Positions 2,945 through 64,000 of a DNA stretch of 64,000 bases are shown piece by piece (within the stretch, counting starts at the first letter, position 1; every line of letters starts with the position of its first letter). The notes below the pieces were generated by a model that ran no database searches, was not told the origin of the DNA, and saw nothing but the letters and a program-made list of their open reading frames with translations. The stretch is taken from contig NC_092673.1 in the NCBI RefSeq assembly GCF_964355755.1, forward strand, positions 19,837,648-19,901,647, in the 5' to 3' direction. The DNA comes from Antedon mediterranea. Its lineage: Eukaryota; Animalia; Echinodermata. Made by a program: the position numbers and the translations under genes.

Positions 2945-3460
2945 CACACCATCATAGTACTTTAGGCAATAATACGGTGTCTATTCTAGGCTAAATTCTA
3001 TATTAATAATAGTCAAATAAATTTCCGATACGCATCAATTACTTCTATAATGATTCTAACATTAGATGCATTATTCCATATCATGATAAATGGTCAAACA
3101 ATAAAGGTATGAGCAATCTAAAACAATGAATAACTCTCAACTACTACTGGGGTTAAAACAATATCGCCGCCAGCGGGTGTCACGAAAGCTCAGACCACGA
3201 AAGCTCAGACCCCCTAAGACCTAAGATCACGAAAGCTAAGACCCAACACCTAACTAAGATTACAAATATTTATCTTTCGCACCTGCCTTGTATTTTAACT
3301 CCTAACATTTATTCTGAATACCACACCTTAGAATTGGCACTTTCATGAAAAAGAATCACATAAAAAGTAACAAATACATTTTTAAATTGATGATTTTACA
3401 GACGTTTTTCTCGCACACAAAATGACTAGCCTACAGTACAGTAGGCCTACCCCATGGGCC

Positions 3461-30127: not shown

Positions 30128-30660
30128 AAAGAAGGAAGTAGACATAAAGAAGGAGGTAGACATAAAGAAGAGGGTAGACATAAAGAAGGAAGTAGACATA
30201 AAGAAGGAAGTAGACATAAAGAAGGGGGTAGACATAAAGAAGGAGGTAGACATAAAGAAGGAGGTAGACATAAAGAAGGGGGTAGACATAGAGAAGGAGG
30301 TAGACATAAAGAAGGAAGTAGACATAAAGAAGGGGGTAGACATAAAGAAGGAGGTAGACATAAAGAAGGGGGTAGACATAGAGAAGGAAGTAGACATAAA
30401 GAAGGAAGTAGACATAAAGAAGGAAGTAGACATAAAGAAGGAAGTAGACATAAAGAAGGGGTAGACATAAAGAAGGAGGTAGACATGAAGAAGGGGGTAG
30501 ACATAAAGAAGGGGGTAGACATAAAGAAGGAGGTAGACATAAAGAAGGGGGTAGACATAGAGAAGGGGGTAGACATAAAGAAGGAGGTACACATAAAGAA
30601 GGAGGTACACATAAAGAAGGGGGTAGACATAAAGAAGGAGGTAGACATAAAGAAGGAGGT
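30128..30660. repeat. 18-bp minisatellite, ~29-30 copies
   Basis: (AAGAAGGAGGTAGACATA)n with GGAAG/GGGGG variants. Confidence 0.95.
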
Positions 30661-31846: not shown

Positions 31847-32671
31847 ATGGGCGGTGGTAAGCCAAAGGGAGGACAGAGGGACGATTCGCCTGCAGCCAGG
31901 CCACGTCGTAACCAAAAAGAGGCTGAAGGAAAAGGCATCCCTTGCCTTGAAGATAAGTTAGATAAGTCCAATTGCGACATAGACTCTAAGGAAATCGCTG
32001 GCATTATCCAATCTGAATTGAAACTCTTATTTGATGGCAAATCGGACATATTGGATAACTTAGCGAAACAAATAACATCGATGATCAAGGACCAACTGGC
32101 TGAGCATATTATGCAAATTGTTAGTAAAGCCACTATGGATGCTCTTAGATTTGAACTTGACGAGTCGAATGATTGCATGAAGAAAATGGAACAGGAAATC
32201 GAGGACATTAGGGAATCACTGGATGAAAGTGAACAATATTCCAGGAGGAACTGTTTGGTGATACATGGACTGGAGGAGAAAGTAGGTGAGAATACCGATA
32301 ATATTGTTACACAATTATTTAGTTCTAAGATGAACTTTACGGTGAATCATAATGACATTGATAGGAGTCACAGACTAGGCCCCAAGAAACCAAGTAACGG
32401 CAAGCCCCGGGGAGTTATTGTGAAGTTCGCTCAATACAATAAAAGAAATGAAGTTTATAAAGCAAAAAGAAAACTGAAAGGTACCGATACCTTTATACAC
32501 GAGAACCTAACAATGAAAAGGATGAAATTGTTAAGAACCATCAAAACCCAGCATAATTCCGCCTTGACCGCAGTCTGGACCCAAGATGGACGCATACATG
32601 TACTAACTAAGAATAATAAGAAGATTGTCGTAACAAAATTTTCCGATCTCAACAAACTGCATTCCACCTAA
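31847..32671 (+). CDS. LINE ORF1p (coiled coil + RRM + CTD, L1/Tnp22-like), 274 aa
   Basis: EQYSRRNCLVIHG, IDRSHRLG, PRGVIVKF, FIHENLT and WTQDGRI motifs; ATG at 31847 chosen over the upstream GTG. Confidence 0.85.
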   Translation: MGGGKPKGGQRDDSPAARPRRNQKEAEGKGIPCLEDKLDKSNCDIDSKEIAGIIQSELKLLFDGKSDILDNLAKQITSMIKDQLAEHIMQIVSKATMDALRFELDESNDCMKKMEQEIEDIRESLDESEQYSRRNCLVIHGLEEKVGENTDNIVTQLFSSKMNFTVNHNDIDRSHRLGPKKPSNGKPRGVIVKFAQYNKRNEVYKAKRKLKGTDTFIHENLTMKRMKLLRTIKTQHNSALTAVWTQDGRIHVLTKNNKKIVVTKFSDLNKLHST

Positions 32672-32937
32672 TTTACCGTGTGGTAGTACATTAAATGTGA
32701 AATTGTGAGATTTCTTGTTTTTGCCCTGAAACCAGAATTTTAACTATTGTATACATTATAGACTGCAGCATTAACTGTTTGGTGTGTGTGCTTTATTGTG
32801 ATTCTTTTTATTGTAAATTGTGTTTTTATTTATTATTGTATTGCTAACCTGCCGGTTTTTAGTCATTTATTTGAACACCATTTTGCTTAACAGCTTTGGT
32901 GAATTGATTGTATTTTGTTCTTTTCCAATACTACTTT

Positions 32938-35928
32938 ATGAGCACGACTCAATATGAAAATAAATCGAGTCCTACACATTCCTTAGATTGCTTTGAAAGT
33001 GACGAGGCTGGTTTATGCAAATATTTCACTCCAACACAACTAAATGAGCTACAGGCGCAAATTGATAACGATGGTATCTTTACAACGTTACACATGAATG
33101 CACGTAGTCTTCCAAAACACTTCGACGAAATTAGCATTATGTTAGATACGATAGGTCGTGCGTTTGATGTACTTGGTTTCTCGGAAACCTAGATAAATAA
33201 GAACACGCCAATTGACTTATTAAATATCAATGGATACAATATGTACACTTGTAATAGAGAAGGTAGAGTCGGTGGTGGAGTTTGTCTATATTTAAAAGAA
33301 CAAATCAACACCGTAACACGTGATGATTTTGTATTTAATGATAACTCCATTGATTCACTTTTTCTAGAAATAATAAACACAAACGGCAAAAATACTATTG
33401 TAGGTATGTTATATCGACCACCAAATTCAAACGTCAACTCATTTAACTCTGATCTGGAAGAAATCTTACATAAACTTAATCGCGAAAACAAAAACTGCTA
33501 TATCTTAGGAGATTTTAATCAAGACTTATTAAAATATGACATTCAAAAAACAACACAGGAATTCACAAACATTATTTAGTACTCAACATCTTTTAATCCA
33601 TTAATCAACTTACCCACCAGAATAACATCGTCTTCTGCTACAATTTTAGATAATATTATTACAAATGATGATAACATTTCGCATTGTGGAGTAATAGTCA
33701 CTGACATTACCGATCATCTACCCATTTTCATGACAACACACTTGTCAATAAATACTAACACACAAGCTCCAATTACAAAACAAAAAATAATTAATGATAC
33801 AACATTAAATAACTTGCTTATTGCTATTTCTAATGAGGATTGGGGTGAACTATATTTATGCACAGATACCAATACATCATATAACCTATTTATTAAAAAA
33901 CTATCCAATCTCATAGATAATAACATACCTACAAAAAGTAATAAGCCAAATGGTAATACAAAGAAAAAACCATGGATCACAACAGGAATTTTGATTTTAA
34001 TAAAAAAGAAAAATAAACTTTATAAAAAATACTATAAAAACCCAACACAATTATTAAAAAATATATATAAAAAGTACAAAAATAAATTAACTCATTTAAT
34101 TAGAATTCGGAAAAAACAATATTATTCCAAAAAACTGGATGCAGCTCGACACGATTCAAAGCAAACATGGAAAGTTTTAAATGAAGTTCTAAATAGAAAA
34201 AAATCGAGTGTTAAGCCAAATGAGGTAATTAACCATAGTAATAAAACTTTGGTATGTGATCCAAAAGGTATGTCTGACGCTTTTAATGACTTCTTCTCCA
34301 ATATTGGAAATGAATTAGCAAACAAAATATCAAATGTAAACAATTCTGACTTTAAACAATATATGAAAGAGAGTCAATCCCAATCCATATTTTTCAATCC
34401 TACGAATGAAGAAGAGGTCATTGAAATAGTTAGTCAAATCAAAAATTCAAATTCAGAAGGTGTTGATAACTTAAGTAATCGCATTCTAAAACATATTATT
34501 GCTGCTGTGGCATCTCCTCTTGTACATATCTTTAACCTCTCTCTTGAGACAGGCATGGTCCCTGATAGTATGAAAGTAGCTAGAGTAGTTCCAATTTTTA
34601 AATCTGGCAATAAAAGTGACGTTAGTAATTATAGGCCGATCTCTATTCTGCCTACCGCTTCAAAAATACTTGAACAAATTGTTCAAATTAGAGTAAATAA
34701 TTATATCACAAAGTTTAACATCCTTATTAATGCACAATATGGTTTCAGAAAAAACAGTTCTACTTTTATGGCCGTTATAGATCTGGTTGAACGAATAACC
34801 GATGCGCTTGATAAGAAAAAAAATACCATCGGAATATTTATTGATTTGTCAAAAGCGTTTGACACCATCAACCATGATATACTTCTTAAAAAATTGGAAC
34901 ACTATGGCATAAGAGGCACGGCCCTTAAATGGTTTAGAAACTATATTAGTGGAAGGAAACAATTTACGTCTATTGATAACACAAGTTCGTGTTTGATGGA
35001 TATAAATTGCGGTGTACCACAGGGTTCAATTCTGGGGCCTCTACTTTTTATTTTGTACATTAACGATGTATTTAATTGCTCAAACTCGTTATCTTTTGTT
35101 TTATTTGCTGACGACACAAACATATCTGCATCTCACGAAAACTTGGATACGCTCATAGAACTAGTTAATGGTGAACTAAAAAATGTTTCGGATTGGTTCA
35201 TGTGCAATAAACTATCAATCAACGTTAAAAAAACTAATTACATAATTTTCCGCAATCAGCGAAATCCAAGTAATTTGGAGAATGTAAATATTTATGTCAA
35301 CAATAAAAGAATAGATAGAGTTAAATCGACTAAATTCCTTGGAGTACATATTGATGAATTTCTCACATATAAGAACCACATCAATGTCACAGCTAGGAAA
35401 ATATCTCGATATGTAGGAATACTACTATATAAAGTAAGACATTTTTTACCAACCTATACTCTCTGGACAATATACAAATCACTCATTGAACCAGTATTAA
35501 ATTATTGCAACATAATATGGTGTAGCACATTTCCAAGTTATTTAGATGAGTTATTTAAACTCCAGAAAAGGGCATTACGAGCTATAACATGGTCAAAGTT
35601 TAATTTTCAATGTTTCTATAAATTTAAACTTCTTAAAATTGCGGATATCAATAAGTACCAAATTGGGCTTTTTATGTATAATGTTACTACTAATCAGGAC
35701 GTGCGTTTTTCATCGCTCTTTATTAAAAATGGTTCTTACCATAATTATAATACAAGATCTAAAGACAAAATGAGACTCAGAAAACGTAATCGTACTTCTA
35801 CTAGTTTTACTGTGTCATGTGTGGGACCCAAATTGTGGAATGACTTGAATTACGAACTACAAAGTACCAAATCAATATATATATTTAAATCATTGTTTAA
35901 AGAACATTTATTATCATTTTACAAATAA
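32938..35928 (+). pseudogene. LINE ORF2 (AP-endonuclease + reverse transcriptase) with two in-frame stops
   Basis: Single frame; NARSL, FSET*, YRPP, GDFN, TDH; NYRPISIL, DLSKAFD, GVPQGSILGP, FADD; TAG at 33190-33192 and 33577-33579. Confidence 0.92.
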
Positions 35929-37582: not shown

Positions 37583-38415
37583 ACTCAAAAGATGTGAGTC
37601 GTAGATCGTCTATTATATTATGAGCCGTACAGAAACTAGCAGAAAGCTAGATTGAGTGAAAGTAAAAAAGTGAAAAAAAAACCATTATTGAATGTGCGCA
37701 CATCCAACTAAAATAATACAAGTCTTGCAGAGGTGACCTTGACAACGAAGGATACACATTGATCTTGTCATAAAAAAAAGAATAAGATAAAAAAACAGTT
37801 ATCTGGAATATACCCCTTCTCCCCATTCCATCACAGTGATACTGTCAATTGGGATGCAGGGTCTGTCTTCTTTAAATCAAAACAGATTATACACTTACCT
37901 GTTCGTGAATCAAATATGTAGATGTAGGAGTCTATGTTTTTCTTTTCACATACAATTGTCTATTAATGACATTCATTTGCTTTTTTATACATATTTACAA
38001 TAAATTACAAATAAAACAAGTTTAAACAAATAGTTAATAGAGACATTGTTTGTTATAACTAAACCTTTATTAATAAACATTCTTTTTGTTTTTTATAAAT
38101 ACATAACATAATATATAAATACAATAAAATGGCCCTGTAAAGTTTATAATTCTATATAATACATATAATATCTTTCTTTTTCGGTTATTTTATAATTCAT
38201 AAATATTTTTTATAGTATATTTACATGTAGCACATCTTAAATTTTATACAATTAAGTAAATACAATTTTTTTTAAAGCGTAAAACAAATTGCATAGATTT
38301 ACAATGATAATAATAATAATGTATTTCATACTCCTGTGTCTTGATTTGTTTTATGTCTCATGGGTATAATGCTTATGTTCTCGTGCGTTAATCTTATAGG
38401 TTCCGTTACGGATTT

Positions 38416-38890
38416 TTGGTTATCCGCCTCAAGCGGATAAGCCCTTGTTATTGTAAGGATCTTTTTTTTTTTTTTTTTCTTTATTAGTTATCCACTTAGT
38501 AGCGGATAACTCCTTGTAATCGTCCTGTTTCATCATATTTTTTTTGTTGGTTATCCGCAACTAGTAAGTTGCGGATAACCCTTGTTATTAGTTATCCGCT
38601 TAGTAGCGGATAACTCCTTGTAATCGTCCTGTTTCATCAAATTTTTTTTGGTTATCCGCACTTGGCGGATAACCCCTTGTTATTGTCAGGATCTTTTTTT
38701 TGGTTATCCGCACTTGGCGGATAACCTCTTGTTATTGTCACGATCTTTTTTTTTTTTTTGGTTATCCGCACTTGGCGGATAACCCCTTGTTATTTTTTTT
38801 TGGTTATCCGCACTTTGGCGGATAACCCCTTGTTATTGTCAGGATCTTTTTTTTTTTTCTTTTTGGTTATCCGCACTTGGCGGATAACCT
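38416..38890 (+). repeat. Stack of nine Helentron left-terminal hairpins
   Basis: GTTATCC(G/A)C-loop-GCGGATAA at ~38418, 38488, 38549, 38591, 38650, 38702, 38760, 38802 and 38865, most followed by CCTTGT.AT and a T-tract. Confidence 0.9.
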
Positions 38891-41800
38891 CTTGTTATTG
38901 TCACGATCTTTTTTTTTTTTTTTTTTTTTTTTCTTTCTTATTCTTCTTTCTTTCCCAGAATTTTGTTGCGCGTGTATCTCTAAATGTTATCAACATAACA
39001 TTTTATAACTTTATCAGAAGATTGACCTCTATCTGAATATGTCGTAATAAGGTTTTTGGTCTCGTCCGAGTTGCGCAGCGTAAGTTACGCGCGATTTTGT
39101 GAATTTCGCATATTTACCATAGATCGAAAACCAAAAAACAATTTAAATTGAAACTTGGCAAAACTGTAATTAATATCCTGCGCTAACTTTCTATGGATTA
39201 AAAATGGCGGTTTTCACAGAAAATTACGTGCGCACGCGCGTTTAAAATTTCAAGATGCGAAAAATCAATTTCTAATCAACTTTCTACGCGTTTCAGGTCA
39301 TTTTGAGCATTTCAAAAATTCCCACACACGCGCAATTTTTTTACGCGCGCGTGCGCACGTAGCGCAAAAACATATTTGTTTTGGTTGATTTTTGTTTTTT
39401 CAGCCTTTTCTAGTAAATTTACCAATTTTCAATCAATTTCGACTTAAAATCACGTCATACGAGCACGTAGAATTGAATAATTTGCGCGCGTTTTTGATGA
39501 AAAAGTTCAAAAATTTGTGAAAATTATGCCTTTTTTTAAACAGTCATAGATTGTAAACTACGTGGTGAACTTTTTTAAAATTACATATTCTTGAAGTAGA
39601 TGAGTTGTAAATATCGAATCATGCATCGATATTGCTAACCGAACATTATGATGTCATCGTATGGCCACTCGAATATAAAATATAGGATTTTTTTCTCTTT
39701 CGTCATAGCTCATCACATTTAATAGAGCGCATCTCAACCTTTCCGTATTCCATTTCCCCCTAATTTTTTATATTGTCTAGGTCAATCAATGACCTTTCGC
39801 ATGATTTACAATTTGTAAAATGTTTATGACGGCATCATGTGCAAAAGCGTCAATAACTTTGGTCACTTATTTTCACCTATTCTGCACTGTATGTAGTACG
39901 TATACAGTATATATTGTATACTGTATATTCTTAGACGTGACACAAAATAGAGAGCTGACTATAATTTTTTTCAATTGCATAATCGTTTTTCTGTGTGCAA
40001 TATTCTAACGTATGATGTGCACGTGGCGTTTGCGCTGCGGTAAACCTGAATCAAATTTGTTAATTGTTTTCTTTTTTTTTTCTATTCTTCTTTCTTTCAA
40101 CGAATTTTGTTCACAGCGTATCTCTACTTCTGGTCAACATAAGATTGTATAACTTTGTCATAAGATTGACCTGTAGCTTTAGATGTGCAATGATGTTAGA
40201 GTCGCGCAGCGTAAGTTACGCGTGATTCTATGGAATTTTATGGTTGCTCATAAATTTTTAAGACAAAGTTATTTTTCAATGAAACATTACGAAAGTTTAT
40301 TTCATAATATTGTGCAACTTTTGAAATGATAAAAATGGCGTGCTACGCAAAAAATTTTGCGAGTACGAGTGAATTTTTAAAATGCGCAAAATTTATTTCT
40401 ATTTAATTTGCGTACATTTTAGATCATTTTGAGCTTTTCAAAATTGTCTAAATTGTTTGCGTTTTGTGCACGCACTTGTGCACACAGCTCGTACAAAGCG
40501 TAGAAAATGTGTTTTGCAATTGATTTTGTTCATATGCCTACGTTTTATAGTAGATTTCATTCATTTTCATGAATTTTTATTGCAAATTAACGATGCACGT
40601 GCATGTTAAAGTTTAGAAATCGTGTGCTAAAGAATGGGTAATATAATACAAATTTGTGCAAAAATATTCCTATTTTTATTCAGTTATAGCTCCTCAGGAT
40701 GGCAGGTTACCCCATCTATTTGTTATGTATTATGAAAGCTAATGAGTTGTAGATATCAATTAATGTACAATTTGTACCTAAAGGATGTTCTGACGTCACC
40801 ATATGGCCACTAAAATTTTGAAAATAGATTTTTTTCTCTTTTGTATTAGTTAATCCCATTTAACAGAGCGCATCTCACTAATGCGTTTCTATGTTCTTTA
40901 CAAATCAATTTTCTTCCACACATTAGTTAACAAAGTGACCCACGTGATTAAAACTTATGGAAATGGTTGAATTGTGGTTTCATGACGTCATCATATGGCC
41001 AGTTAAATTTAAATAGTCATATTTTTAACTCTTTCCTAAAACTTAATCGTGTTTAAAATAGAGCGCATCTCAGCTTAACGATCCCAAAATTCTTCAAATT
41101 TGTATTGACGTGTAATTATTTAGATAATTAAATTATATAACATATACAGTGTATTCTGTAATATGCTGTCAGCACTGTAAATATATTTATGTCACTCATA
41201 GGATGGCATAATAATTGCCAGCGTGCCCAAAATTCTTCAACTTCTAAGAATGTAATTATTACATAATTGTTCTCTAAAATTGTTACTTTTATGTTTTATG
41301 TTGATGACGTCATTTAAATTGGAATAAGAATATGGGTCTCGTAATTTTTTTATGCTTCACTGTATCTAAATATAGACGTATGACACAAAATAGACACAAT
41401 TCATTAAAATCGTTTTTAAAAGACCGCGCCTCTCACTTTTACCTGCCTGAATTTCCTCAAAATGTCAACATTTTGTTGCTCATAAAAATGTTCCTGTCGG
41501 ATGCTGCAAGGTCATGCTATGGGGTCATGCTATAAGGTCATCCTATGGCTAGTAATTGGAAAGGTAATTGGAAAGGTAGGATATTTGTTTGTTGTTGGCA
41601 TAGTTCATCACTTCAACATATTACGCATCTCAGTTGTACGTGCCAAATTTAATTATATTATTTATATTATATTATTTAATTATGTTATCGTTGAGATGAA
41701 TTATTTTCCGAAAATGGACATACTTTTATGTTTCATTTTGATGACATCAAACATTGTTTTTCCCGTAATTTTAGGTCACACCATAATATAAAACAGTACA

Positions 41801-42401
41801 ACCAGTTACATGTGTGAATAATAATAATACCATTTCTTGTCTCCTCTGCTCTGTGATTTGATCTAATGGATTACTGAAATTTATCTCAGTTACCAGTGGA
41901 ACTTGCTCCAATAGATATAACATTTCTGATAAAACTAATATTATCACACCATAACTGTTAAAGATAATCTTTTATTTCAAACAAATTGAAGAAAACACAC
42001 AAATCTGTATAAAATGTATACCGGTATTTATATAAGCTTTCATTGGTTATTGCAAATGATACAAAATTTTCAACATTATAGTAGGCTGTTTATACTATAC
42101 AGTAGTTCATCAACCTTTTGGTGATCAGTAATTTTACTTAGTACATTATTTACATGGTAATTTGTTAGTTGAGGATTCATTAAACGCATATTTATTGATC
42201 TATTTATAGAAGATTATTATTTTTTAACAATCATCAATATGATTAATAATTTAATCATTTGCCGAGTTTAGACAATAATTGTTATGAAAGAATGACTGCA
42301 TTAGTGGATGCCTAAAACTCCGGTTCCCATTATAATTGAAGAGATGAAACCATTCCATTGAACACCTAAAAACCAAAACAAAATAAATTAATTATTCTTG
42401 C

Positions 42402-43090
42402 AAATGAGTAGATTACTGTATTAGTAATTCATGTGGACCTGTATTGATAGAAAAAAAAATGAAATTATGTATAGAATGAAGTATTGGTAATCGTATAAAA
42501 TAAAACGTATTTTCTTCTTCTGTAAACTTTTTATTTTCAACTTTACTTGAATACCGGTAGATATTGAAAGATTTTTATCTGCACAGATTGCAACATTGCA
42601 TATTCAAATTCAGAACAATATTTATAATAATATAACTCACATAAAAACAAGATTAAAATGTGATTACTCACCAGATATTGTTTCTCCTATACAGGAGAAT
42701 GACATGGGTTGAAATTACAGATTATTCGCTGCCCCTCTTGCATCGATAATAAATTGATTATTTTTCCAAATGAGTAGATTACTGTATTAGTAATTCATGT
42801 GGACCTGTATTGATAGAAATGTATAGAATGAAGTATTGGTAATCGTATAAAACAAAACGTATTTTCTTCTTCTGTGAAACTTTTTATTTTCAACATTACT
42901 TGAATACTGGTAGATATTGAACGATTATTATGTACAGAGATTGCAACATTGCATATTCAAATTCAGAACAATATCTATAATAATATAACTCACATAAAAA
43001 CAAGATTGAAATGTGTTTAGACACCAGATATTGTTTTTCCTATACAGGAGAATGACATGGGTTGAAGTTACAGATTGCTCGCTGCCTCTT
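42402..43090. repeat. ~365-bp tandem duplication downstream of the Helentron ORF
   Basis: AAATGAGTAGATTACTGTATTAGTAATTCATGTGGACCTG recurs at 42402 and 42768. Confidence 0.9.
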
Positions 43091-52200: not shown

Positions 52201-52516
52201 TGATATCATCAATTATTCCTTTAAATTCTGTTGTATCTTTCATAAATTCACAATTGACATTACCTGTATCATCATTTCTGTCGTCTTTGACATTCTCAGT
52301 TGAACAGCATTCATCAAGTAGGTCCAAGATGTCATTAACAACTATTTTAAATTCTGCTGTCTTATCCATAAGTCCATTATTAACATTACCAGTTGTATTG
52401 ACAAAAATCTGCTTTTTACTTGTAACTTCTTTATTCACATTCTTACACAAAAAAATTATCATTATAAAGATAATCAACAAAAAGATACCAACTAATGTTA
52501 TGAATTCCATATCCAT
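43226..52516 (-). CDS. Helentron Rep/helicase/endonuclease polyprotein (3096 aa) with PHD, herpes-tegument-like protease and OTU domains
   Basis: Uninterrupted ORF. HUH EFQMRGSPHVHMLVW (~46775) and YVIGYMSK; PIF1 motifs GGAGTGKS (~45145), IIDEISMV, GDFYQLPPV, TVHKVQGMT, GQAYVGLSRV; EEP endonuclease HNIQGL, CLTETWL, IYRPP, MGDFN, LIDHVY; OTU GDGNCFYRA..HF; PHD C4-H-C3. Confidence 0.95.
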   Translation of the reverse strand: MDMEFITLVGIFLLIIFIMIIFLCKNVNKEVTSKKQIFVNTTGNVNNGLMDKTAEFKIVVNDILDLLDECCSTENVKDDRNDDTGNVNCEFMKDTTEFKGIIDDIINILSYGTEVTSEFDDTCDFCNIEVKVDDNCITCDCCSQYFHVKCVRDVFEDKLCNSRVIWICSMCGNNNFVDNMFGEIGIPCHFNRYTILEPDESVTSDFPELTKNKEKRCNNAILKCQQTGSEDLLGSDWIRVRSKKRTDNRKKRCKNRGNKKRRKRVINGISIEPGVKYIGKGVKDFYERQNNNKMEWNMNTTTYREYNKENGKTNILGNSQTIIDDSGRPMCDDLKNTKVTHGIQQQSGGGSKRLRNNKGRFVKTKKIDNKKAQGNVNLKNDCDTIKDIKNMGNNDNSETKTDEDFKMECTVENDNTATDDAKAQNNSKMNDRSRIIDSNGTDHKNASCEFEENEVLIIDDGCKKAVTEKIRSHTKPKCDQHTIDVDIEVLKKNNFSEELIIDDVPKQKNTRKRQKTQSINELQVYNSNENITVAQGNFNQGNYRFGFASGKQCVANSLVAILYSTKRNGNEFYTKDLDTILTLGNELYRYIQKDSTMHEDLLMISELPKELDILDNTFVISPKESVFGIIDGNLEFMAEYGALSLNQALEKELHQHDAFFMNFNRSTFSIIKRVNGFLIFDPHARDRFGCVSEHGKSILLYSPSWQSVYDYCIRLARSMNCNLHETEFELTGVNIENKSMMLCSASVLDDNCEQRNLGNVDVDEPSTSYQYKCSTRLPDKNIDSKVKGKKHNKEGHVSSSNGWQNDSDIEIVNVQYGKRPDKNFKFVPILEEQKKNMCNKLGIHCEHIDMNCGINRASQIGHPLQITNITGDGNCFYRAISYIISGTEDNHLLLRRAITNHLLETDDLFINTFSHEYRSVKEYVFKKRVMDNGTWASNAEISAMANLLNTDIYSFNDQLLTWQLFSAKKPGRIDDVTTDNGIYILYTMNVHFNVVESVNVSQNNFQETTRQVDMDVTSQKNYTTQKRKQMRKECHTFEDKEPKHKKSKTAEGPCSGNEVKTFRRKRKISYENRKQKEKNRQRMKRRREEKDNSIEKNENRNKYQSDPVYREEKKRKVKEAQQIRYADDDYKFQKRKENKERQQKMYRCEPEYNIKVRNKARHNYNIDLDYRTTKQVNNLLNYKCNEKFAQNLKEKLKNRYNNDIIFRHKTIQNNKQRNAEKYHNDSKFRQNLKQKLGAKYRNNSKFRKNVTQKLAEKYRSNLKFRQNCKQKLADKYRSNLKFRQNCKQKLADKYRRNLKFRQNCKQKLADKYRRNLNFRQNCKQKLADKYRSNLEFRQKCKQKLAEKYRGNLKFRQSIKERCKQRFAEKYHGDEEFRKNVMKKNMKNREKKKKENSNFEFVLENFRETVSRGPEYVCCVCFKMLFKDQVMKCTKAKYKNKACINEKYLHICNNECNKPCQFIESPRCRLWICFTCHRKLLKGKVPAEANSNNLQLHDIPPELRCLNNLEQHLIGLNIPFMKLMNLPKGGQHGIHGPVVCVPSNTIETVKMLPRPQVDDQLISVKLKRKLSYKGYYKYKFVNTANVIQALRFLQDHNKCYFDIAINEDWHNYLSEENSENANTKVHENQTCVENNEEEEEEVEDRLYGAIFDTSLQPVDRRQNLVDEYFNDIICCAPCENNSPIALLSNKSNEAKSFPVLFPTGQPTFHDTRDVKITLGRYFHNRLMHIDNRFAQNTEYIFYSQSLYELQQILSSISIALRKGSSKKDDFSKVTVSDLKNVTKIQEILKSDRGYKFLKQIRGTPPYWQATQKDIIAMVRQIGKPTFFLSFSSADFRWKEIMTTLLSQSGDQRNIEELEWADKCNLLKSNPVTVARMFDKRFHTFLKNVILSEAQPIGKVVDYFYRIEFQMRGSPHVHMLVWVENAPIFGTDKDKEVINFVDKYISCAVPCETVDPEMNEIVKSVQIHSKRHSKSCKKKGTNCRFNFPRQPSGNTFVMRPTIVDKDNDDNDDNKQAMELLTSVKDAVTNEETYKNAIELFQSLGITQSAFEKANNSVATEEKIVIKRNPQDVWVNQYNPSLLRAWNANMDIQYITNVYACIIYVIGYMSKSEREMGLLLSHAASEVKEGNEDARQSLRKLGNVYMNNREVSAQESIYRVCSLRLKECSRKVEFIPVGPNPVRMSLPLSVIKNKADDDVSAWLPSKIDKYKARPNSSEFNKMCLAKFCSEYRILSSSEMKGNKQKKNVFQLKKQLGFIQKRTRTSNAIVRYPRFPMDTAPEKYFLSVLQLFLPFRKDEQLKPPNFETYEQFHEKGCVKLCGCQLQTVKSIVHGNMEQYEKSSDEVEEAQECLSKFGPQEDAWSLLCPESEKERLDNPKPNVEVDDEEDEFFIPDFGIQKNHTSKVESNSSNIPRPELNKMIRSLNEKQQHIFYKTRQWCLDKVNGKKPEAFYTFITGGAGTGKSHLVNCIYNEATRILGKIMENPDDLSILKLAPTGIAAYNIKGQTIHSALSIPINISLPYQPLGEEKISALRNKLGQLQIVIIDEISMVNQRLLWYIHGRLRQIKQVRNDSPFGNISVIAVGDFYQLPPVMGSSLYKDTLESSLWIDNFKQVQLDQIMRQKEDKEFALLLNKLRTKEKHDCLSDNDLLVLKSRETGEECEDAIHIYPRNKQVDEWNKKMLHKTCTDIVCIKAEDSVVNSKKQSKNCDKPRNSRQTSLLNYLWIAINARVMLIKNVDVKKGLTNGCMGHVDEIVKPDHNTEPVSIKVKFDNNDIGIQAIEMFKESMGKKYSRKQFPLKLAYACTVHKVQGMTMDKAVVCLKDTFTHGQAYVGLSRVTSITGLTIENFKPSLIYCDPNIKKCLNNMDSYVQCDKQGHDSASRFSIMLHNIQGLKQHFVDLQCNDLFMNSNVICLTETWLNKDDDFFDVRIEPYKLYHQARYDSYSNTNDLSSKIKHQAHGGVAVYAKNTSSSRLNICNNDIEAVSFLITSPISVAVSVIYRPPSYDINQFCQNLRKHLEELHKMSTKCIVMGDFNENLFKQSSRVNNLMAENEYKQHVTCSTTENNTLIDHVYSKGLDSVQAEVIPIYYSYHEAIQIKF

Positions 52517-53055
52517 TATTCAAAATTTGTATAAGAAACAAATCTACAAATTTCTTCAAATTAATAAACTTTGTATTCTGCAATTCCAATGAATATTACA
52601 ATTAGGTTCTTTTTATCAATTCAAGAAATTCTTGCTAAAACAAAATAAATTATTAAAATTCCAAAAACAATTCAATTTTATATTGTCTTTTGTTTCTATG
52701 ATTTTTAATTTTTGTCCTAATTTTTTTTCTTTTAATATATTTTTTTTTTTGTCTGCTTTTTTTTCAATAGTTCAATTTCACTGAATTAAAAAATTAGCTT
52801 CTGCTTAATATTGGCTTGATGAAATACTTTATATTATTTTAAACTTCTCTTTAATACTTGGTTATGCTAAATAGTTTCAGATTCTAATTTTTATTCTTTT
52901 TACAATTCTACTTAATAACAGATTCAAATAAAAGTGATCTTTAAATCTTCTTTAATTAATTCTTTTGTAATAAACTCTGTTTAATATTTATTTCTTTATA
53001 ATAAGCTTCTGTTTTATTCTTCAAACTTTTGTTTGTATAATCAAACTTTAACTTT

Positions 53056-53322
53056 ACACTTTTGCTTTTGCAAAAATGGTTTTGTAATAAACTTTTGTTT
53101 ATTAGTTGTTTCCTTGTGATTAACTTCTGTTATCTTCAAGGTTTGACACTTTTGCTTTTGCAAAAATGGTTTTGTAATAAACTTTTGTTTATTAGTTGTT
53201 TCCTTGTGATTAACTTTTGTTATCTTCAAGGTTTTACACTTTTGCTTTTGCAAAAATGGTTTGTAATAAACTTTTGTTTATTAGTTTTTCCTTGTGATAA
53301 ACTTCTGTTTACTTCAAGGTTT
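53056..53322. repeat. 90-bp tandem repeat x3 upstream of the Helentron ORF
   Basis: ACACTTTTGCTTTTGCAAAAATGGTTT at 53056, 53146 and 53236. Confidence 0.9.
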
Positions 53323-53392
53323 TATTGAATGTTTCAAAGATACTTTTAAAAAATGTTTAAAAAGAAATTGTGCATAAATATTAAAATTCGGT

Positions 53393-53468
53393 AACCCCTC
53401 GTAGAAACTCTCTTTGGAGAGTGGATCTTTTTCTAAAGACCCGGATCTCTTCTGAGATCCAGTGGGTT
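53393..53468 (-). other. Candidate structured RNA element (three abutting tetraloop hairpins closed by an outer stem)
   Basis: GGAUCUC-AGAA-GAGAUCC, GGGUCUUU-AGAA-AAAGAUCC and ACUCUC-CAAA-GAGAGU, enclosed by AACCC/GGGUU. Confidence 0.6.
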
Positions 53469-54039
53469 TATATAAGACAGTCACCTACAATAAAAGAAAA
53501 AAAAAAGAGTTAGTTATTAATTTTAAGATACACTGTACAGTACTAAGAATTACAGTCAAACAATTATATTGAATCAGTAGATAAATCAGTGTTTTTACAA
53601 ATACCTAAATAATAATATACACATCCCCCCTGTGGAATGTAACATGATCTATTGGGCCTAGCAAAACAAATTAGGACCAACTCATTACTAAATTCAGGAT
53701 AGACCCATTTTATAAAATTGCAAATTTATGTCTGGAGAAACTGACCACCACATTTATGTTAAAAAGGATGATTGTCCCAAATTTTGAAGTAAATTGTGAT
53801 AATATATTTGTGACTTTGGTTTATACAATATAAATAAATCACTATAGAAGATATTTTGACCTAAAAATATGTCAAAACTTCATTACATGGAATGTGTCGG
53901 AAACAAATTCTTTCATAACAATTTCACCTTCAAAATTAATCTGAAAATAGGTTTAATTATTCAATGTTCTAATAAAATAGAATTTTATACACAAAAATAT
54001 TTGGTCACTCAGTATAGTAAATTTACAAACAACACATGT

Positions 54040-57000
54040 TTATCAATTATTGGAGGGCATAAAGTAAGGAAAATATGTTTTTTCCGTTTTACAGATAATT
54101 TTCTAATACTCACAGCTGTAACTGGCACTGTATATTTTCTGTACAACTACAATCTAAAAAATAAAAGGAAAATCATTAATAATGGCAATAAACAACATTA
54201 ACACTTTTTCAAAATCAACATGCTTCTTAATCAATGTCTGAAAAATTAAGAAATTTTCTCAAAATGAATTTGGGTATTAGACAGCTGGTTAGGGCCTACA
54301 TGTTGTCTCAATGCTAATTTCATTTAATATTTTATTCACAAACCATAAAATCTGATTTATGTAAATGTTTCATAATAGAACATGCCTACAAAATAACAGG
54401 CAACGGTTCACAAAGTAAAGAAAATATGTTTTATCCGTTTAACAGATAATCTACTAATACTCACAGCTGTAGCTGACACTGTATATGTTCTACAATCTAA
54501 AAAAAAAAAACAAGGAAAAACATTAATAATTGGCAATAAACAACATTAATACTTTTTCCAAATCAACATGCTTCTTAATCAATGTCTGAAAAATTAAGAA
54601 ATTCCTCAAAATGACTTTGGGTATGAGACAGCTGGTTAGGCCTACATGTTGTCTTAATGCTAATTTCATTTAATATTTTATTCACAAACCATAAAATCTG
54701 AATGATGTAAATGTTACATAATAGAAAATGCCTACAAAATAACAGGCAACGGTTCACAAAGTAAAGAAAATATGTTTTCTCCGTTTAACAGATAATCTAC
54801 TAATACTCACAGCTGTAGCTAACACTGTATTTTTTCTACAATCTAAAAAAACAAAACAAGGAAAAACATCAATAATTGGCAATAAACAACATTAACACTT
54901 TTTCCAAATCAACATGCTTCTTAATCGAGGTCTGAAAAATTAAGAAATTTCCTTAAAATGACTTTAGGTATGGGACGGCTGGTTAGGGCCTACATGTTGT
55001 CTCAATGCTAGTTTCATTTAATATTTTATTCACAAACCATAAAATCTGAATTATGTAAATGTTTCATAATAGAAAATGCCTACAAAATAACAGGCAACTG
55101 TTCACAAAGTAAGGAAAATATGTTTTCTCCGTTTAACAGATAATCTACTAATACTCACAGCTGTAGCTAACACTGTATATTTTCTACAATCTAAAAACAA
55201 CAAGGAAAAACATTGATAATGGCAAAAAACAACATTAACCCTTTTGTTAAATCAACATGCTTCTTAATCAATGTCTGAAAAATTAAGAAATTTCCTCAAA
55301 ATAACTTTGGGTATGGGCCGGCTGATTGGGGTCTACATGTTGTCTCAAAACTACTTTCATTTAATATCTTATTCACAAACCATAAAATCTGAATTATGTA
55401 AATGTTTCATAATATAAAATGCCTACAAAATAACAGGCAACAGTTCACAAAGTAAGGAAAATATGTTTTCTCTGTTTAACAGATAATCTACTAATACTCA
55501 CAGCTGTAGCTGACACTGTATATTTTCTACAATCTAAAAAAACAAAACAAGGAAAAACATCAATAATTGGCAATAAACAACATTAACACTTTTTCCAAAT
55601 CAACATGCTTCTTAATCAATGTCTGAAAAATTAAGAAATTCCTCAAAATGACTTTGGGTATGAGACAGCTGGTTAGGCCTACATGTTGTCTTAATGCTAA
55701 TTTCATTTAATATTTTATTCACAAACCATAAAATCTGAATGATGTAAATGTTACATAATAGAAAATGCCTACAAAATAACAGGCAACGGTTCACAAAGTA
55801 AAGAAAATATGTTTTCTCCGTTTAACAGATAATCTACTAATACTCACAGCTGTAGCTAACACTGTATATTTTCTACAATCTAAAAAAACAAAACAAGGAA
55901 AAACATCAATAATTGGCAATAAACAACATTAACACTTTTTCCAAATCAACATGCTTCTTAATCGAGGTCTGAAAAATTAAGAAATTTCCTTAAAATGACT
56001 TTAGGTATGGGACGGCTGGTTAGGGCCTACATGTTGTCTCAATGCTAGTTTCATTTAATATTTTATTCACAAACCATAAAATCTGAATTATGTAAATGTT
56101 TCATAATAGAAAATGCCTACAAAATAACAGGCAACTGTTCACAAAGTAAGGAAAATATGTTTTCTCCGTTTAACAGATAATCTACTAATACTCACAGCTG
56201 TAGCTAACACTGTATATTTTCTACAATCTAAAAACAACAAGGAAAAACATTGATAATGGCAAAAAACAACATTAACCCTTTTGTTAAATCAACATGCTTC
56301 TTAATCAATGTCTGAAAAATTAAGAAATTTCCTCAAAATAACTTTGGGTATGGGCCGGCTGATTGGGGTCTACATGTTGTCTCAAAACTACTTTCATTTA
56401 ATATCTTATTCACAAACCATAAAATCTGAATTATGTAAATGTTTCATAATATAAAATGCCTACAAAATAACAGGCAACAGTTCACAAAGTAAGGAAAATA
56501 TGTTTTCTCTGTTTAACAGATAATCTACTAATACTCACAGCTGTAGCTGACACTGTATATTTTCTACAATCTAAAAAAACAAAACAAGGAAAAACATCAA
56601 TAATTGGCAATAAACAACATTAACACTTTTTCCAAATCAACATGCTTCTTAATCAATGTCTGAAAAATTAAGAAATTCCTCAAAATGACTTTGGGTATGA
56701 GACAGCTGGTTAGGCCTACATGTTGTCTTAATGCTAATTTCATTTAATATCGTATTCACAAACCATAAAATCTGAATGATGTAAATGTTACATAATAGAA
56801 AATGCCTACAAAATAACAGGCAACGGTTCACAAAGTAAAGAAAATATGTTTTCTCCGTTTAACAGATAATCTACTAATACTCACAGCTGTAGCTAACACT
56901 GTATATTTTCTACAATCTAAAAAAACAAAACAAGGAAAAACATCAATAATTGGCAATAAACAACATTAACACTTTTTCCAAATCAACATGCTTCTTAATC

Positions 57001-59770
57001 GAGGTCTGAAAAATTAAGAAATTTCCTTAAAATGACTTTAGGTATGGGACGGCTGGTTAGGGCCTACATGTTTTCTCAATGCTAGTTTCATTTAATATTT
57101 TATTCACATACCATAAAATCTGAATTATGTAAATGTTTCATAATAGAAAATGCCTACAAAATAACAGGCAACTGTTCACAAAGTAAGGAAAATATGTTTT
57201 CTCCGTTTAACAGATAATCTACTAATACTCACAGCTGTAGCTAACACTGTATATTTTCTACAATCTAAAAACAACAAGGAAAAACATTGATAATGGCAAA
57301 AAACAACATTAACCCTTTTGTTAAATCAACATGCTTCTTAATCAATGTCTGAAAAATTAAGAAATTTCCTCAAAATAACTTTGGGTATGGGCCGGCTGAT
57401 TGGGGTCTACATGTTGTCTCAAAACTACTTTCATTTAATATCTTATTCACAAACCATAAAATCTGAATTATGTAAATGTTTCATAATATAAAATGCCTAC
57501 AAAATAACAGGCAACAGTTCACAAAGTAAGGAAAATATGTTTTCTCTGTTTAACAGATAATCTACTAATACTCACAGCTGTAGCTGACACTGTATATTTT
57601 CTACAATCTAAAAAAACAAAACAAGGAAAAACATCAATAATTGGCAATAAACAACATTAACACTTTTTCCAAATCAACATGCTTCTTAATCGAGGTCTGA
57701 AAAATTAAGAAATTTCCTTAAAATGACTTTAGGTATGGGACGGCTGGTTAGGGTCTACATGTTGTCTCAATGCTAATTTCATTTAATATCGTATTCACAA
57801 ACCATAAAATCTAAATTATTTAAATGTTTCATAATATAAAATGCCTACAAAATAACAGGCAACAATTCACAAAGTAAGGTAAATATGTTTTCTCCGTTTA
57901 ACAGATAATCTACTAATACTCACAGCTGTAGCTGAAACTGTTAATTTTCTACAATCTAAAAAAAACAAGGAAAAACATTAATAATGGCAATAAACAACAT
58001 TAATACTTTTTCCAAATCAACATGCTTCTTAATCAATGTCTAAAAAATTAGGAAATTTCCTCAAAATGACTTTGGGTATGGGCCGGCTGATTGCGGCCTA
58101 CATGTTGTCTCAATGGTAATTTCATTTAATTGTTTGATCACAAACAATAAAATCTGAATTACGTAAATGTTTCATAATAGAAAATGTCTACGAAATAACA
58201 GGCAACAGTTCACAAAGTAAGGAAAATATGTTTTCTCCGTTTAACAGATAATCTACTGATACTCACAGCTATAGCTGAAACTGTATATTTTCTACAATCT
58301 AAAAAAAACCAAGGAAAAACATTGATAATGGCAATAAACAACATTAACACTTTTTCCAAATCAACAAGCTTCTTAATCAATGTCTGAAAAATTAAGAAAT
58401 TTCCTCAAAATGACTTTGGGTATGGATCGGCTGATTGGGGCCTACATGTTGTCTCAATGCTAATTTCATTTAATATTTTATTCACAAACCATAAAATCTG
58501 AATGATGTAAATGTTTCATAATAGAAAATGCCTACAAAATAACAGGCAACAGTTCACAAAGTAAGGAAAATATGTTTTCTCTGTTTAGCAGATAATCTAC
58601 TAATACTCACAGCTGTAGCTGACACTGTATGTTTTCTACAATCTAAAAAAAAAACAAGGAAAAACATTAATAATTGGCAATAAACAACATTAACACTTTT
58701 TCCAAATCAACATGCTTCTTAATCGAGGTCTGAAAAATTTAGAAATTCCTCAAAATGACTTTGGGTATGAGACAGCTGGTTAGGGCCTACATGTTTTCTC
58801 AATGCTAATTTCATTTAATATTTTATTCACAAACCATAAAATCTGAATGCTGTAAATGTTTCATAATAGAAAATGCCTACAAAATAACAGGCAACTGTTC
58901 ACAAAGTAAGGAAAATATGTTTTCTCCATTTAACAGATAATCTACTAATACTCACAGCTGTAGCTAACACTGTATATTTTCTACAATCTAAAAACAACAA
59001 GGAAAACATTGATAATGGCAATAAACAACATTAACCCTTTTTCCAAATCAACATGCTTCTTAATTAATGTCTGAAAAATTAGGAAATTTCCTCAAAATGA
59101 CTTTGGGTATGGGCCGGCTGATTAGGGCAAGCAACAGTTCACAAAGTAAGGAAAATATGTTTTCTCCATTTAACAGATAATCTACTAATACTCACAGCTG
59201 TAGCTGAAACTGTTAAATTTCTACAATCTAAAAAAAACAAGGAAAAACATTGATAATGGCGATAAACAACATTAACACTTTTTCCAAATCAACAAGCTTC
59301 TTAATCAATGTCTGAAAAATTAAGAAATTTCCTCAAAATAACTTTGGGTATGGGCCGGCTGATTGGGGTCTACATGTTGTCTCAATACTACTTTCATTTA
59401 ATATCTTATTCACAAACCATAAAATCTGAATTATTTAAATGTTTCATAATATAAAATGCCTACAAAATAACAGGCAACAGTTCACAAAGCAAGGAAAATA
59501 TGTTTTCTCCGTTTAACAAATAATCTACTGATACTCACAGCTGTAGCTGAAACTGTATATTTTCTACAATCTAAAAAAAACAAGGAAAAACATTGATAAT
59601 GGTAATAAACAACATTAACACTTTTTCCAAATCAACAAGCTTCTTAATCAATGTCTGAAAAATTAAGAAATTTCCTCAAAATAACTTATTTTATTCACAA
59701 AGAATAAAATCTGAATTATGTAAATGTTTCATAATAGAAAATGCCTACAAAATAACAGGCAACAGTTCAC
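54040..59770 (-). repeat. ~345-bp tandem array (17 units), each with a putative 32-nt micro-exon
   Basis: ACTCACAGCT recurs 17 times from ~54108 to ~59533; the minus strand reads pyrimidine tract-AG / 32 nt / GTGAGT. Confidence 0.9.
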
Positions 59771-60322
59771 TCCCAATCATGAAACCATTAATCATCTCTA
59801 CAAACTATTTATTTAATATACACTACTTACAATATTCTAGAGATACTAAAGTAGAAACAATTGTGTATCTCTTCCAACAGCTACAAGACAAAAATATATT
59901 ATTATTATAAATATCAATACAAATTGTGATCAAAACATCCACAATATTTGTAACAATGACAGGTGCGAAAGGGAACTGCGCTGACCTACGTCACTACTAC
60001 TAGGACTACTGGAGTAAGCCTAGACAACATGCTATTGTAAGAAGAACGAGTCATTGTTTCTTCTCTTTAAGAATTTATACAACTAAAAATTAAGCTAGAG
60101 TTAATATAATATAAGCCAGGTGCAAAAGGGAACTAGCGCCGTTTAGTCCTACTAAAAACAGCAAGTATTCTTGTACAGGCTAGGCCTAGGTACACTATGA
60201 ATGTAGCAGACATATTTGTTCGTATTTACCGGGACCGTATTTAACATACACATGGCCATACACGATTGTCGTGCTGCTACGAAAGCCATCGGGCTGAAAA
60301 ACGTCACGACGTTTGCCGGCCA

Positions 60323-61374
60323 GCGATTTTTTTTTTCGTACATAAGTTGGGGACCCCATCATGAAACGTCACAAAATAAACATGAATAATTCATCAGTTA
60401 AATTTTCTTGTACCGTGTGCACCCAAGCGTATAGCAACAAGAAGTGATTACACAAGTGCGGTACGATTCTAGGCCTATCTCCGCTGTTGAAGAATAGCGG
60501 CGTTTTGTGTGGATTGTCGAAATAATCGGCCTTTAGTTTATGGTGTTTTTAATATAATTTATTACTAAAGAATTACGTGTTAAAATTATAGTTTCTATTA
60601 ATACTATTAGGCCTAATTATTAGTCTCTAAACCCATGTCTATTCTAGTAGTAGCTGTGTGGATGTGTGTGACGTGTGTGTGTGTTAGGTATGACCAAAGA
60701 TAGTTACACTATCTTTGGTATGACACAATCCGAGTAATAAGTCAGCAAAATTAAACAATAAACATTACACAAAAATACATTTTTTATTCTCGTGGGTCAA
60801 ATCTTCCCATCTCATGTGTTCATATACGCGCATTTTTAAAGTTCCTTTGAGTACATTGCATATTGTTTGATAATTGATAGCAGAATTAAAAAAATACAGT
60901 ACACAAATTATACACATTCTTTATTCTTGTGGGTCTGAGCTTTCTTTGGGCTATGTCCAAGAACGCTTGGGTGCACACGGAACAACAACTGCGATACGAT
61001 TCTTTCTACAATAATAGGCCTAGGATTCTAGGTCAATTCATGATATTGCCTTCGCGCACTCTTCTTCACACACACGTCCACTATGCAAAATGTGTCGAGG
61101 CTAATCGACAGCTAGGCAAGACATTAAACTAAGTAGTAATTGGACATAGCCCAAAGACACAAGTCACACACACCCACTACTAGAATATAATACTCTATTA
61201 TGAAATCAGCGGAGATAGGCCTAGAATCGTACCGCACTTGTGTAATCACTTCTTGTTGCTATACGCTTGGCCGGGTGCACACGGAACAAGAAAATGTAAC
61301 TGATGAATTATTCATGTTTATTTTGTGACGTTTCATGATGGGGTCCCCAACTTATGTACGAAAAAAAAAATCGC
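60323..61374. mobile_element. MULE-like MITE nested in the Helentron
   Basis: ~165-bp TIRs starting GCGATTTTTTTTTTCGTAC; exact 9-bp TSD TGCCGGCCA (60314-60322, 61375-61383); same termini as 3461-6379. Confidence 0.88.
60695..60717. repeat. 23-bp micro-palindrome, probable P-superfamily excision footprint
   Basis: CAAAGATAGTTACACTATCTTTG flanked by the exact 7-bp direct repeat GTATGAC. Confidence 0.6.
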
Positions 61375-61845
61375 TGCCGGCCATCTCTGAAAATCTGACA
61401 TCCTTCCGTATATCTATAGTAGGCTAGGGTATCGTTAGTAAGTAGCAATTACAAAACAACTACAAATCAAACAATCCACATAATTTCTTACCTATTTCTT
61501 ATAGTATATCAATTCTCAACAAACTTGAGTTTGTTATTTATTTATTTAATCGTTGAAGTTCGACGATATAAAATGGTATTTGTAACAATATTATCAGAGA
61601 GCGACTCTTAAAAACCAACATGGAGTTTACCAACGACATACCACAACACAACACGTTGTCGAATTTTCTCGAAATTCGGTTCACCTACAGTATGGCATGC
61701 AATCCTCGCCAAAATTACCAATATTTAACGAATAACGAAAATTAGTTTTCACGTCAGACCTATTATATGTATTCTACGTGTATATTAGACGTTGCGTTTT
61801 CGCGGATAACCTAACTCGTCCGCAGTGACGAGTTCAAATCTAGTT

Positions 61846-62992
61846 TTTCTTTTTTCTTCTTTCTTTCCCAGAATTTTGTTGCGCGTGTATCTCAAAATCT
61901 TCTTAACATAACATTGTATAACTTTATCAGAAGATTGACCTCTATCTGAAGATGTCGTAATAAGGTTTTCGGTCCAGTCCGAGTTGCGCAGCGTAAGTTA
62001 CGCGCGATTTTATGAATTTCAATGATTGATCATATATTGAAAACCAAAAGTCATTTTTTATTGAAACTTGGTGAAAGTTTAAGTCTTATCAAGCGCAAAC
62101 TTTCTATGGATTAAAAATGGCATGTTTTACATAAAGTTACGCGCGCACGCGCGTTCAAAATTTCAAAATGCGCAAAATTCATTTCTAATCAACTTTCTAC
62201 GCGTTTTATGTCATTTTGAGCATTCCAAAAATTCCCACGCGTGCGCAATTTTTTTACGCGCGCGTGCGCACTTAGCGCAAAAACATCTTTTTTTTGCTTG
62301 ATTTTTGTTTTTTTCAGCCTTTTCTAGTAAATTTACCAATTTTCAATCAATTTCGACTTAAAATCACGTCATACGAGCACGTAGAATTGAAAAATTTGCG
62401 CGCGTTTTTGATGAAAAAGTTCAAAAATTCGTCAAAATTATGCCTTTTTTAAAACAGTCATAGATTCTAAACTCCGTGGTGAACTTTTTTAAAATTTCAG
62501 ATTCTGGAAGTAGATGAGTTGTAGATAACAAATCATGTATCGATATGGCTAACCGGACATTGTGACGTCATCGTATGGCCACTCAAATATAAAATATAGG
62601 ATTTTTGTCTCTTTCGCATAGCTCATCACATTTAATAGAGCGCATCTCCACTTATCCGTATTCCATTTCCCACCATTTTGTTATATTCTCTAGGCCAATC
62701 AATTATCTTTCGCATAATCTACCATTTTTTAAATTGTGATGACGTCATCATGTCCAAAAGCGTCAATAACTTTGGTCCCTTATTTTCACCTATTCTGCAC
62801 TGTATGTAATACGTATACAGAATATAGTGTATACCGTATATACTTTGACGTGACGCAAAATTGAGAGCGCACTAACATTATTTCAATGGCGTAATCGTAT
62901 TTCTGCGCGCAATATTCTAACGTATGACGTGCGCGTGGCGTTTGCGCTGCGGATAACCTAACTCGTCCGTAGTGACGAGTTCAAATCTAGTT
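61846..62992 (+). mobile_element. Non-autonomous Helentron body lacking its left hairpin, with an intact right end
   Basis: Starts in the T/CT tract (TTCTTTCCCAGAATTTTG); homologous to 38930-40050; ends GCGGATAACC-AACTCGTC/GACGAGTT-CTAG (62987-62990). Confidence 0.85.
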
Positions 62993-64000
62993 GGTTATCC
63001 GCACTTGGCGGATAACCCCTTGTTATTGTCACGATCTTTTTGGTTATCCGCACTTGGCGGATAACCCCTTGTTATTGTCACGATCTTTTTTTTTTTTTTT
63101 TTTTTTCTATCTTATTCTTCTTTCTTTCCCAGAATTTTGTTGCGCGCATATCTCTAAATATTCTCAACATGACATTTTGTAACTTTATCAGAAGATTGAT
63201 CTCTATCTGAATATGTCGTAATAAGGTTTTCGGTACCGTCCGAGTTGCGCAGCGTAAGTTACGCGCGATTTTATGAATTTCGCGTATTTAATTTAGATCG
63301 AAAACTATTAAACCATTTAAATTGAAACTTGGCAAAAGTTTAATTTATATCATGCGCTAACTTTCTATGGAGAGAAAATGGCAAGTTTTACAAAAAGTTA
63401 CGCGCGCACGCGCGTTTAAAATTTCAAAAAGCGAAAAATCAATTTCTAATCAACTTTCTATGCGTTTCATGTCATTTTGAGCATATCAAAAATTCCCACG
63501 CGTGCGCACTTTTCTTACGCGCGCGTGCGCACGTAGCGCAAAAACATCAATTTTTTCCTTGATTTTTGTTTTTCCAGCCTTTTCTAGTAAATTTACCAAT
63601 TTTCAATCAATTTCGACTTAAAATCACGTCATACGAACACGTAGAATTGAACAATTTGCGCGCGTTTTTGATGAAAAAGTTCAAAAATTTGTGAAAATTA
63701 TGCCTTTTTTTAAAAAGTCATAGATTCTAAACTATGAGGTGAACTTTTTTTAAATTACACATTCTGGAATTAGATGAGTTGTAGATATCGAATCATGCAT
63801 CAATATAGCTAACCGGACATTGTGACGTCATCGTATGACCACTCAAATAAAAAATATAGGATTTTTTTCTCTTTCGTCATAGCTCATCACATTTAATAGA
63901 GCGCATCTCCACTTATCCGTATTCCATTGCCCTCCATTTCTTTATATTGTCTAGGTCAATCAATTATCTTGCGCATGATTCTCCATTTTAAAAATTGTTA
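62991..64000 (+). mobile_element. Further non-autonomous Helentron(s): two left hairpins plus a body, running off the window
   Basis: GGTTATCCGCACTTGGCGGATAACC at 62993 and 63042, followed by the same body. Confidence 0.85.

Follow-up and report, generated by a model that had tools for sequence, protein, structure and literature searches.

A tandem array of 17 micro-exons, spliced on the evidence of one sequencing run, in the leader of a crinoid Helentron

The subject of this analysis is a 64,000-nt stretch of the genome of the crinoid Antedon mediterranea (contig NC_092673.1, positions 19,837,648 to 19,901,647; referred to as the window), in which a long open reading frame (ORF) on the minus strand belongs to an element that we classify as an autonomous Helentron. 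Seventeen tandem units, each made of an intron end, a micro-exon and an intron start, form an array that precedes this ORF. The array is real and, by the evidence of one sequencing run, it is spliced. We favour, with a probability of roughly 0.6, the explanation that it is a tolerated tandem amplification of an exon in the spliced 5' untranslated region (UTR) of the element and that it persists without being selected for. Coordinates of all features are collected in Table 1.

A first-pass annotation, made from the sequence alone, had proposed 17 tandem copies of a micro-exon bounded by AG and GTGAGT in units of ~345 bp, and 17/17 were located where it placed them, on the minus strand. Read on that strand, each unit has a T-rich tract ending in TTTTAG, then the exon segment and then GTGAGT (17/17 copies). 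The micro-exon is 32 nt long in 16 of the 17 copies and, in agreement with the annotation, somewhat longer (40 nt) in the copy nearest the ORF. The unit size holds for 15 units (343–351 bp) but not for units 1 and 3, which carry deletions (285 and 240 bp, respectively); mean pairwise divergence between units is 6.4%. Of 2000 dinucleotide shuffles made from a single unit, 3 contained a strong acceptor followed by GTRAGT within 15–60 nt. When the window was divided into 370 tiles, 16 contained this cassette and 16/16 of these were in the array or at its edge. The donor of the micro-exon matches the consensus at 6 of 9 positions. The micro-exon had been described as lacking ATG and having stop codons in two frames; the former is true of all 17 copies, the latter of 10, the remaining 7 having stops in one frame only. 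In the joined exons each of the three frames has stops and none stays open for more than 32 codons; a coding function for the micro-exons was rejected.

The region of the ORF is present in five public sequencing runs, none of which is recorded as RNA. Run X1 is considered RNA by guess and runs X2–X4 correspond to one DNA-like sample; comparisons relied on contigs only, from X1–X4 over 53330–54440 and from X1 and X3 over 59500–60300. Splice junctions of the predicted kinds, from micro-exon to micro-exon and from micro-exon to terminal exon, were searched for in these runs and were found as loose ends of X1 contigs. Two X1 contigs end at 53484, and the loose ends behind that position carry the 3' end of a micro-exon (consensus of 19 letters, 2 contigs); reciprocally, a loose end before 54110 carries 15 letters of the terminal exon (1 contig). 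Likewise, the loose ends before 59539 display the start of a micro-exon (12 letters, 2 contigs) and those behind 59570 the end of one (9 letters, 2 contigs). All four strings map where spliced joins predict and differ from the neighbouring genomic letters, in keeping with the proposal of spliced micro-exons ahead of a Helentron ORF. The X2–X4 contigs continue through 53484 without a break, and no micro-exon joins were present for X2–X4 among the matches listed (0/6 X3 rows over 59500–60300). The join between micro-exons involves no microhomology and is flanked by GT..AG on both sides, and that of micro-exon 17 to the terminal exon involves 4 letters of microhomology. Among the joined X1 contigs, one has 11 mismatches to the window over 120 letters, beyond which it diverges, so that a second subfamily, represented by a diverged copy, likely makes the same splice.

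The element is assigned to autonomous Helentrons (HLE2) on the basis of its domain set, its hairpin end and protein hits sharing that domain set. Profile searches of the intact ORF gave matches to Helitron_like_N (E = 8.6e-36) and PIF1 (E = 6.6e-29), and the Rep and helicase motifs are present, together with a C-terminal apurinic/apyrimidinic (AP) endonuclease and the marker domains DUF6570 and Herpes_teg_N, which belong to the HLE2 domain set as described in the accessible parts of PMC11417382 and PMC9741609. The closest proteins are gene models of A. mediterranea. The start of the ORF (52457-52516, minus strand) is hydrophobic and resembles a membrane anchor, a feature common to the Antedon models P0001-P0003 and P0020, absent from the sea-urchin and fish models viewed and odd for a transposase. 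The Helentron-type end is identical at 52 of 56 aligned bases to the end of a ~1.1-kb non-autonomous family found on both flanks. Since this end lies at 61843 and the ORF on the other side of the array, the array is inside the element, between end and ORF. The hairpin end is thus upstream of the ORF, which is inverted relative to it and points away, an arrangement known in a few Helentrons according to the part of PMC5148889 that was available. No repeat matching this end was detected at 38.9–43.2 kb, where the other end was sought; eight candidate left ends occur at 38418–38865 among nested elements.

As to the origin of the array, the repeats give way to unique sequence at 59771 and 54060, both of which are intronic positions. 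Intronic unit edges with unique flanks indicate that the exon was duplicated whole with its flanking intron and then expanded block-wise; the amplification by tandem duplication put forward in the first-pass annotation is thereby borne out. Units 8–16 form three blocks of 1,037 bp that differ from one another at 4, 8 and 12 positions, and identity of this degree (99–99.6%) implies recent turnover of copy number. Conservation of the splice signals relative to the rest of the unit was also analysed. Invariant columns amount to 74% of the 343 in the unit and to 69% in the exon (10/32 exon columns vary), and the invariance of AG and GT is unremarkable (P = 0.31 for 4 sites, P = 0.07 for 9 sites). 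Three wider windows around the splice sites gave P = 0.033, 0.100 and 0.005, values to be read in the knowledge that these windows were picked after seeing the data and that array copies are non-independent. The signals are only weakly more conserved than the rest (P = 0.005–0.31, depending on the window), and not significantly so in the minimal tests. The window values hint at purifying selection on splicing; they do not speak for selection on copy number.

Outside the array, the motifs annotated for a 50-nt exon-like piece (59880-59831), for a donor at 61491 and for an acceptor before 53484 are all present in the sequence. If all predicted exons are used and transcription starts at 61780, as assumed for this calculation, splicing would shorten the leader from 9,264 nt with 160 ATGs to 1,859 nt with 4 ATGs, none of which (0 of 4) is contributed by the micro-exons. 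No TATA or initiator (Inr) word was found at the predicted first exon. Among the matches listed there was no join to the predicted 50-nt exon, a weak test because the copies in X1 and X3 differ inside this exon; loose ends indicate that other copies of the family have a longer and different interior there. The possibility that the 50-nt exon is an old copy of the micro-exon was rejected, the alignment being no better than chance (P = 0.21).

Table 1. Features of the Helentron and its leader (positions within the window)
Feature	Position	Strand	Remarks
Helentron-type end	61802..61843	+	10-bp subterminal repeat 61802-61811; 8-bp-stem hairpin 61813-61834; end 61843; T run
Predicted first exon	61492..61780	-	donor GTAAGA at 61491, consensus match 7/9; start assumed
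Insert of 1.07 kb, like a miniature inverted-repeat transposable element (MITE)	60314..61383	.	~175-bp terminal inverted repeats; inside predicted first intron
Predicted second exon	59831..59880	-	50 nt; AG ... GTAAGT
Array of 17 tandem units (end of intron, micro-exon, start of intron)	54061-59770	-	breakpoints intronic
Micro-exon 1	59539..59570	-	32 nt; X1 loose ends at both edges
Other micro-exons, 5' ends	59227, 58987, 58642, 58298, 57955, 57607, 57264, 56916, 56570, 56227, 55879, 55533, 55190, 54842, 54496	-	
Three-unit higher-order repeat, units 8-16	54412..57522	-	three 1,037-bp blocks
Micro-exon 17	54114..54153	-	40 nt, 8-nt insertion; joined to terminal exon
Last intron	53485..54113	-	629 nt, GT..AG
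Untranslated start of terminal exon	52517..53484	-	968 nt; 9-codon upstream ORF (ATG 53375); 90-bp repeat, three copies
Intact ORF, 3,096 aa	43226..52516	-	Herpes_teg_N (VTD), OTU, DUF6570, Rep, PIF1 helicase, endonuclease

Related Helentrons were examined for comparable structures. A fish-type Helentron (locus L002) has 11 exons of 57–273 nt, with 10 GT donors and 1 GC donor, before one giant exon, and its joined exons have an open frame of 2,897 aa; positions 303–3400 of this locus display a clean 12-exon structure with one GC-AG intron. In a model from the blenny Salarias (P0150; locus LOC115409845), exons 7–10 of L002, all of phase 0, occur 4, 2, 4 and 3 times, the copies of exons 7 and 9 lying directly next to one another, and there are isoforms devoid of such blocks. 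In a Festucalex model, from locus LOC144019426, seven copies of a 24-aa unit occupy the corresponding zone, and the isoforms differ by whole 24-aa steps in 14/14 compared (15 of 29 cluster members). These models suggest that exon duplication recurs in the 5' zone of Helentrons and is kept where the frame is unbroken; copies would be safe for the frame as symmetric exons in fish and as an ATG-free UTR exon in the array element. No clean exon array was seen in Strongylocentrotus, Thunnus and Notolabrus isoforms, some of which differ in a repeat within the ORF, possibly as annotation artefacts. DNA similarity to the leader was detected in none of 80 metagenome loci, and relatives were not found in viral contigs.

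The sequence of events that would best account for these data is the following. An exon was duplicated whole through intronic breakpoints and then expanded by three-unit blocks, possibly via unequal exchange or rolling-circle slippage. Transcription would begin just inside the hairpin end, the joins observed in X1 would be those of the transcript, and up to 19 introns would be removed from the full mRNA, with the attendant fall in its ATG load. Weak purifying selection would keep the splice sites usable, and a copy losing a site would simply be skipped. Extra exons would be tolerated because they are free of ATG, and hence the array would be kept without any selection for it.

Several points weigh against this account. 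The joins come from a single run whose RNA nature is a guess (X1), and this run also contains contigs spanning introns. The short sides of the joins are 9–19 letters long against a bridging threshold of 31 letters, so that 0 joins pass, and the absence of joins from X2–X4 holds just among the matches listed. Contigs do not discriminate between loci as the source of a join, between forward and back-splicing or between numbers of included exons. As for the other Helentrons in which the first-pass annotation advised looking for analogous exon-bearing arrays, the outcome is mixed: repeated exons do occur in the fish models, which are RefSeq predictions with a DNA basis for L002 only, but an upstream array of exons is present in 0/15 metagenome loci with at least 2 kb upstream of a long ORF, a sample of low power drawn from short contigs (80 loci fetched, 47 with an ORF of at least 600 aa, 15 with the upstream length). 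Finally, one of the three wider windows, comprising 19 columns around the two splice sites, is invariant throughout (P = 0.005), which hints at a selection stronger than the word tolerated conveys.

The array might alternatively be selected, its many introns mimicking a host mRNA and thus guarding against silencing or raising export or expression, to a degree set by the number of copies. Splicing in X1, the intact ORF, the retention of AG and GTGAGT in every copy (lost in 0/17) and the excess of conservation in 2/3 splice-site windows are in line with this idea; on the other hand, the copies are not independent of one another, significance is not reached in the minimal test, the number of copies changes quickly and the unique introns would alone already provide introns. 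The effect of introns on the human silencing hub (HUSH) bears on it in both directions. According to the accessible part of PMC8770142, in human cells introns protect transgenes and 5' introns of an ORF abolish HUSH repression, but long exons are still marked and protection does not require splicing. Moreover, many 5' exons before a giant exon are ordinary in a fish-type Helentron, and mimicry is therefore not needed to explain the layout. With weak site invariance, an ordinary multi-exon 5' layout and a protection that is independent of splicing, the adaptive role proposed at first pass has no support so far, and we view it as possible but doubtful. The broader conjecture that Helentrons grow arrays of working exons as a selected device to disguise or tune their transcript, exon–intron units seeding the central repeats that are so widespread, is likewise tentative and, in our judgement, improbable. 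An array acting in the opposite direction, dampening or delaying transposase output through a longer unit, ~550 extra UTR bases and inefficient splicing so as to limit harm to the host, seems a good deal less probable. Introns can postpone gene output, the micro-exon donor is an imperfect match to the consensus, X1 has its intron-spanning contigs and the unspliced leader its 160 ATGs. Those contigs may be DNA, however, and the joined exons add no ATG and are no more stable in fold than shuffled repeats (P = 0.14–0.54). A special fold of the joined exons had appeared against plain shuffles (z = −3); it vanished with these repeat-preserving nulls.

The two remaining explanations concern the nature of the joins themselves. 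Back-splicing would also yield a micro-exon to micro-exon join, and the unit design of exon plus intron recalls Snord116, so the key product could be a circular RNA or a small RNA from each repeated intron, as the first-pass annotation had envisaged. The join to the terminal exon is, by contrast, a forward one, and no intronic RNA was found: over the whole region Rfam gave 3 matches, none near the gathering score (E = 1.9–4.8), and the one intron tested (1/16) lacked C and D boxes and did not fold stably (z = +0.8). We rate this explanation as very unlikely. We give still less credit to the view that a processed retrocopy, a deletion in the DNA or faulty assembly produced the joins, the array then being no more than a common Helentron satellite whose splice-like edges are silent. 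It can invoke the guessed identity of X1, the microhomology at the last join and the silent splice-site repeats of amphioxus (PMC3087553, in its accessible part), but there are two types of join, each seen from both sides, the join between micro-exons lacks microhomology and falls on GT..AG on both sides, no such joins are among the matches listed for X2–X4, and a retrocopy would itself prove past splicing.

The tolerated amplification that we favour can be set against several known systems, within what the accessible parts of the cited sources contain. HLE2 Helentrons (PMC11417382, PMC4067079, PMC9741609) share with the present element the domain order, the subterminal repeat and hairpin end, a probable T-rich site and non-autonomous partners with a common end; a spliced exon array in the leader is unmentioned there. 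That Helentrons can contain tandem arrays is well established (PMC7492417, PMC4067079, PMC12001565): the oyster Cg_HINE (PMC7492417) and the Heli2Xen minisatellites (PMC12001565) likewise have a satellite-like array inside a Helentron, but with no exons reported, whereas the array here is in an autonomous copy and each unit has an exon that is probably used. The mirages of amphioxus (PMC3087553, PMC3902484), also in a marine deuterostome, are minisatellite-like copies of exon–intron edges with concerted turnover; they copy one boundary and leave the mRNA unaltered, whereas the Helentron unit takes in an entire exon together with its two splice sites and is joined copy to copy in X1, and hence does not qualify as a mirage. 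In the Snord116/Snord115 host arrays (10.1101/305557, PMC3845636), tandem units of a non-coding exon plus intron are similarly spliced, but these release small nucleolar RNAs (snoRNAs), whereas no intronic snoRNA was found here and the gene that the array leads into is that of a transposase. Coding genes with tandemly duplicated exons have the same intronic breakpoints and adjacent homologous spliceable exons; the difference is a non-coding, frame-free exon of 32 nt in 17 copies, in a DNA transposon. A literature search in the main text of mostly open papers brought up no earlier description of spliced exons arrayed within a Helentron.

Other repeats of the window were recorded as well. Downstream of the ORF, 42382-43089 (minus strand) consists of two ~356-bp tandem copies; in one of them an acceptor is followed by 15 nt (42686-42672) and GTGAGT, and in the other the donor is altered. 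Further acceptors lie nearby at 42438 and 42365. These copies may mirror the leader array on a small scale on the 3' side. At 38413-41100 and 61844-64000 are the eight stacked left ends, followed by several ~1.1-kb non-autonomous Helentron bodies; the stacking suggests elements nested in one another's T runs, and one body that has diverged (40056-41100) may correspond to the subterminal region of the autonomous element itself. Mobile-element regions at 20941-23469, 693-1394 and 31847-35928 comprise two DUF1759 ORFs, which we take to be Bel/Pao-like, and a non-long terminal repeat (non-LTR) element with reverse transcriptase. There are also two minisatellites, of 36 bp (42 copies, 24548-26064) and 18 bp (30 copies, 30126-30660), the latter adjoining a Helentron-type end.

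The array unites two topics that have been studied separately, satellite-like arrays in Helentrons and exon duplication, in the form of a satellite with a spliced exon as its monomer. It represents a route by which a transposon could gain up to 16 introns fast, and a natural copy-number series for asking if a transposon transcript is protected or tuned by the number of its introns. Exon arrays of this sort inflate isoform counts in gene annotation, and the known Helentron-borne satellites are worth checking for hidden splice sites.

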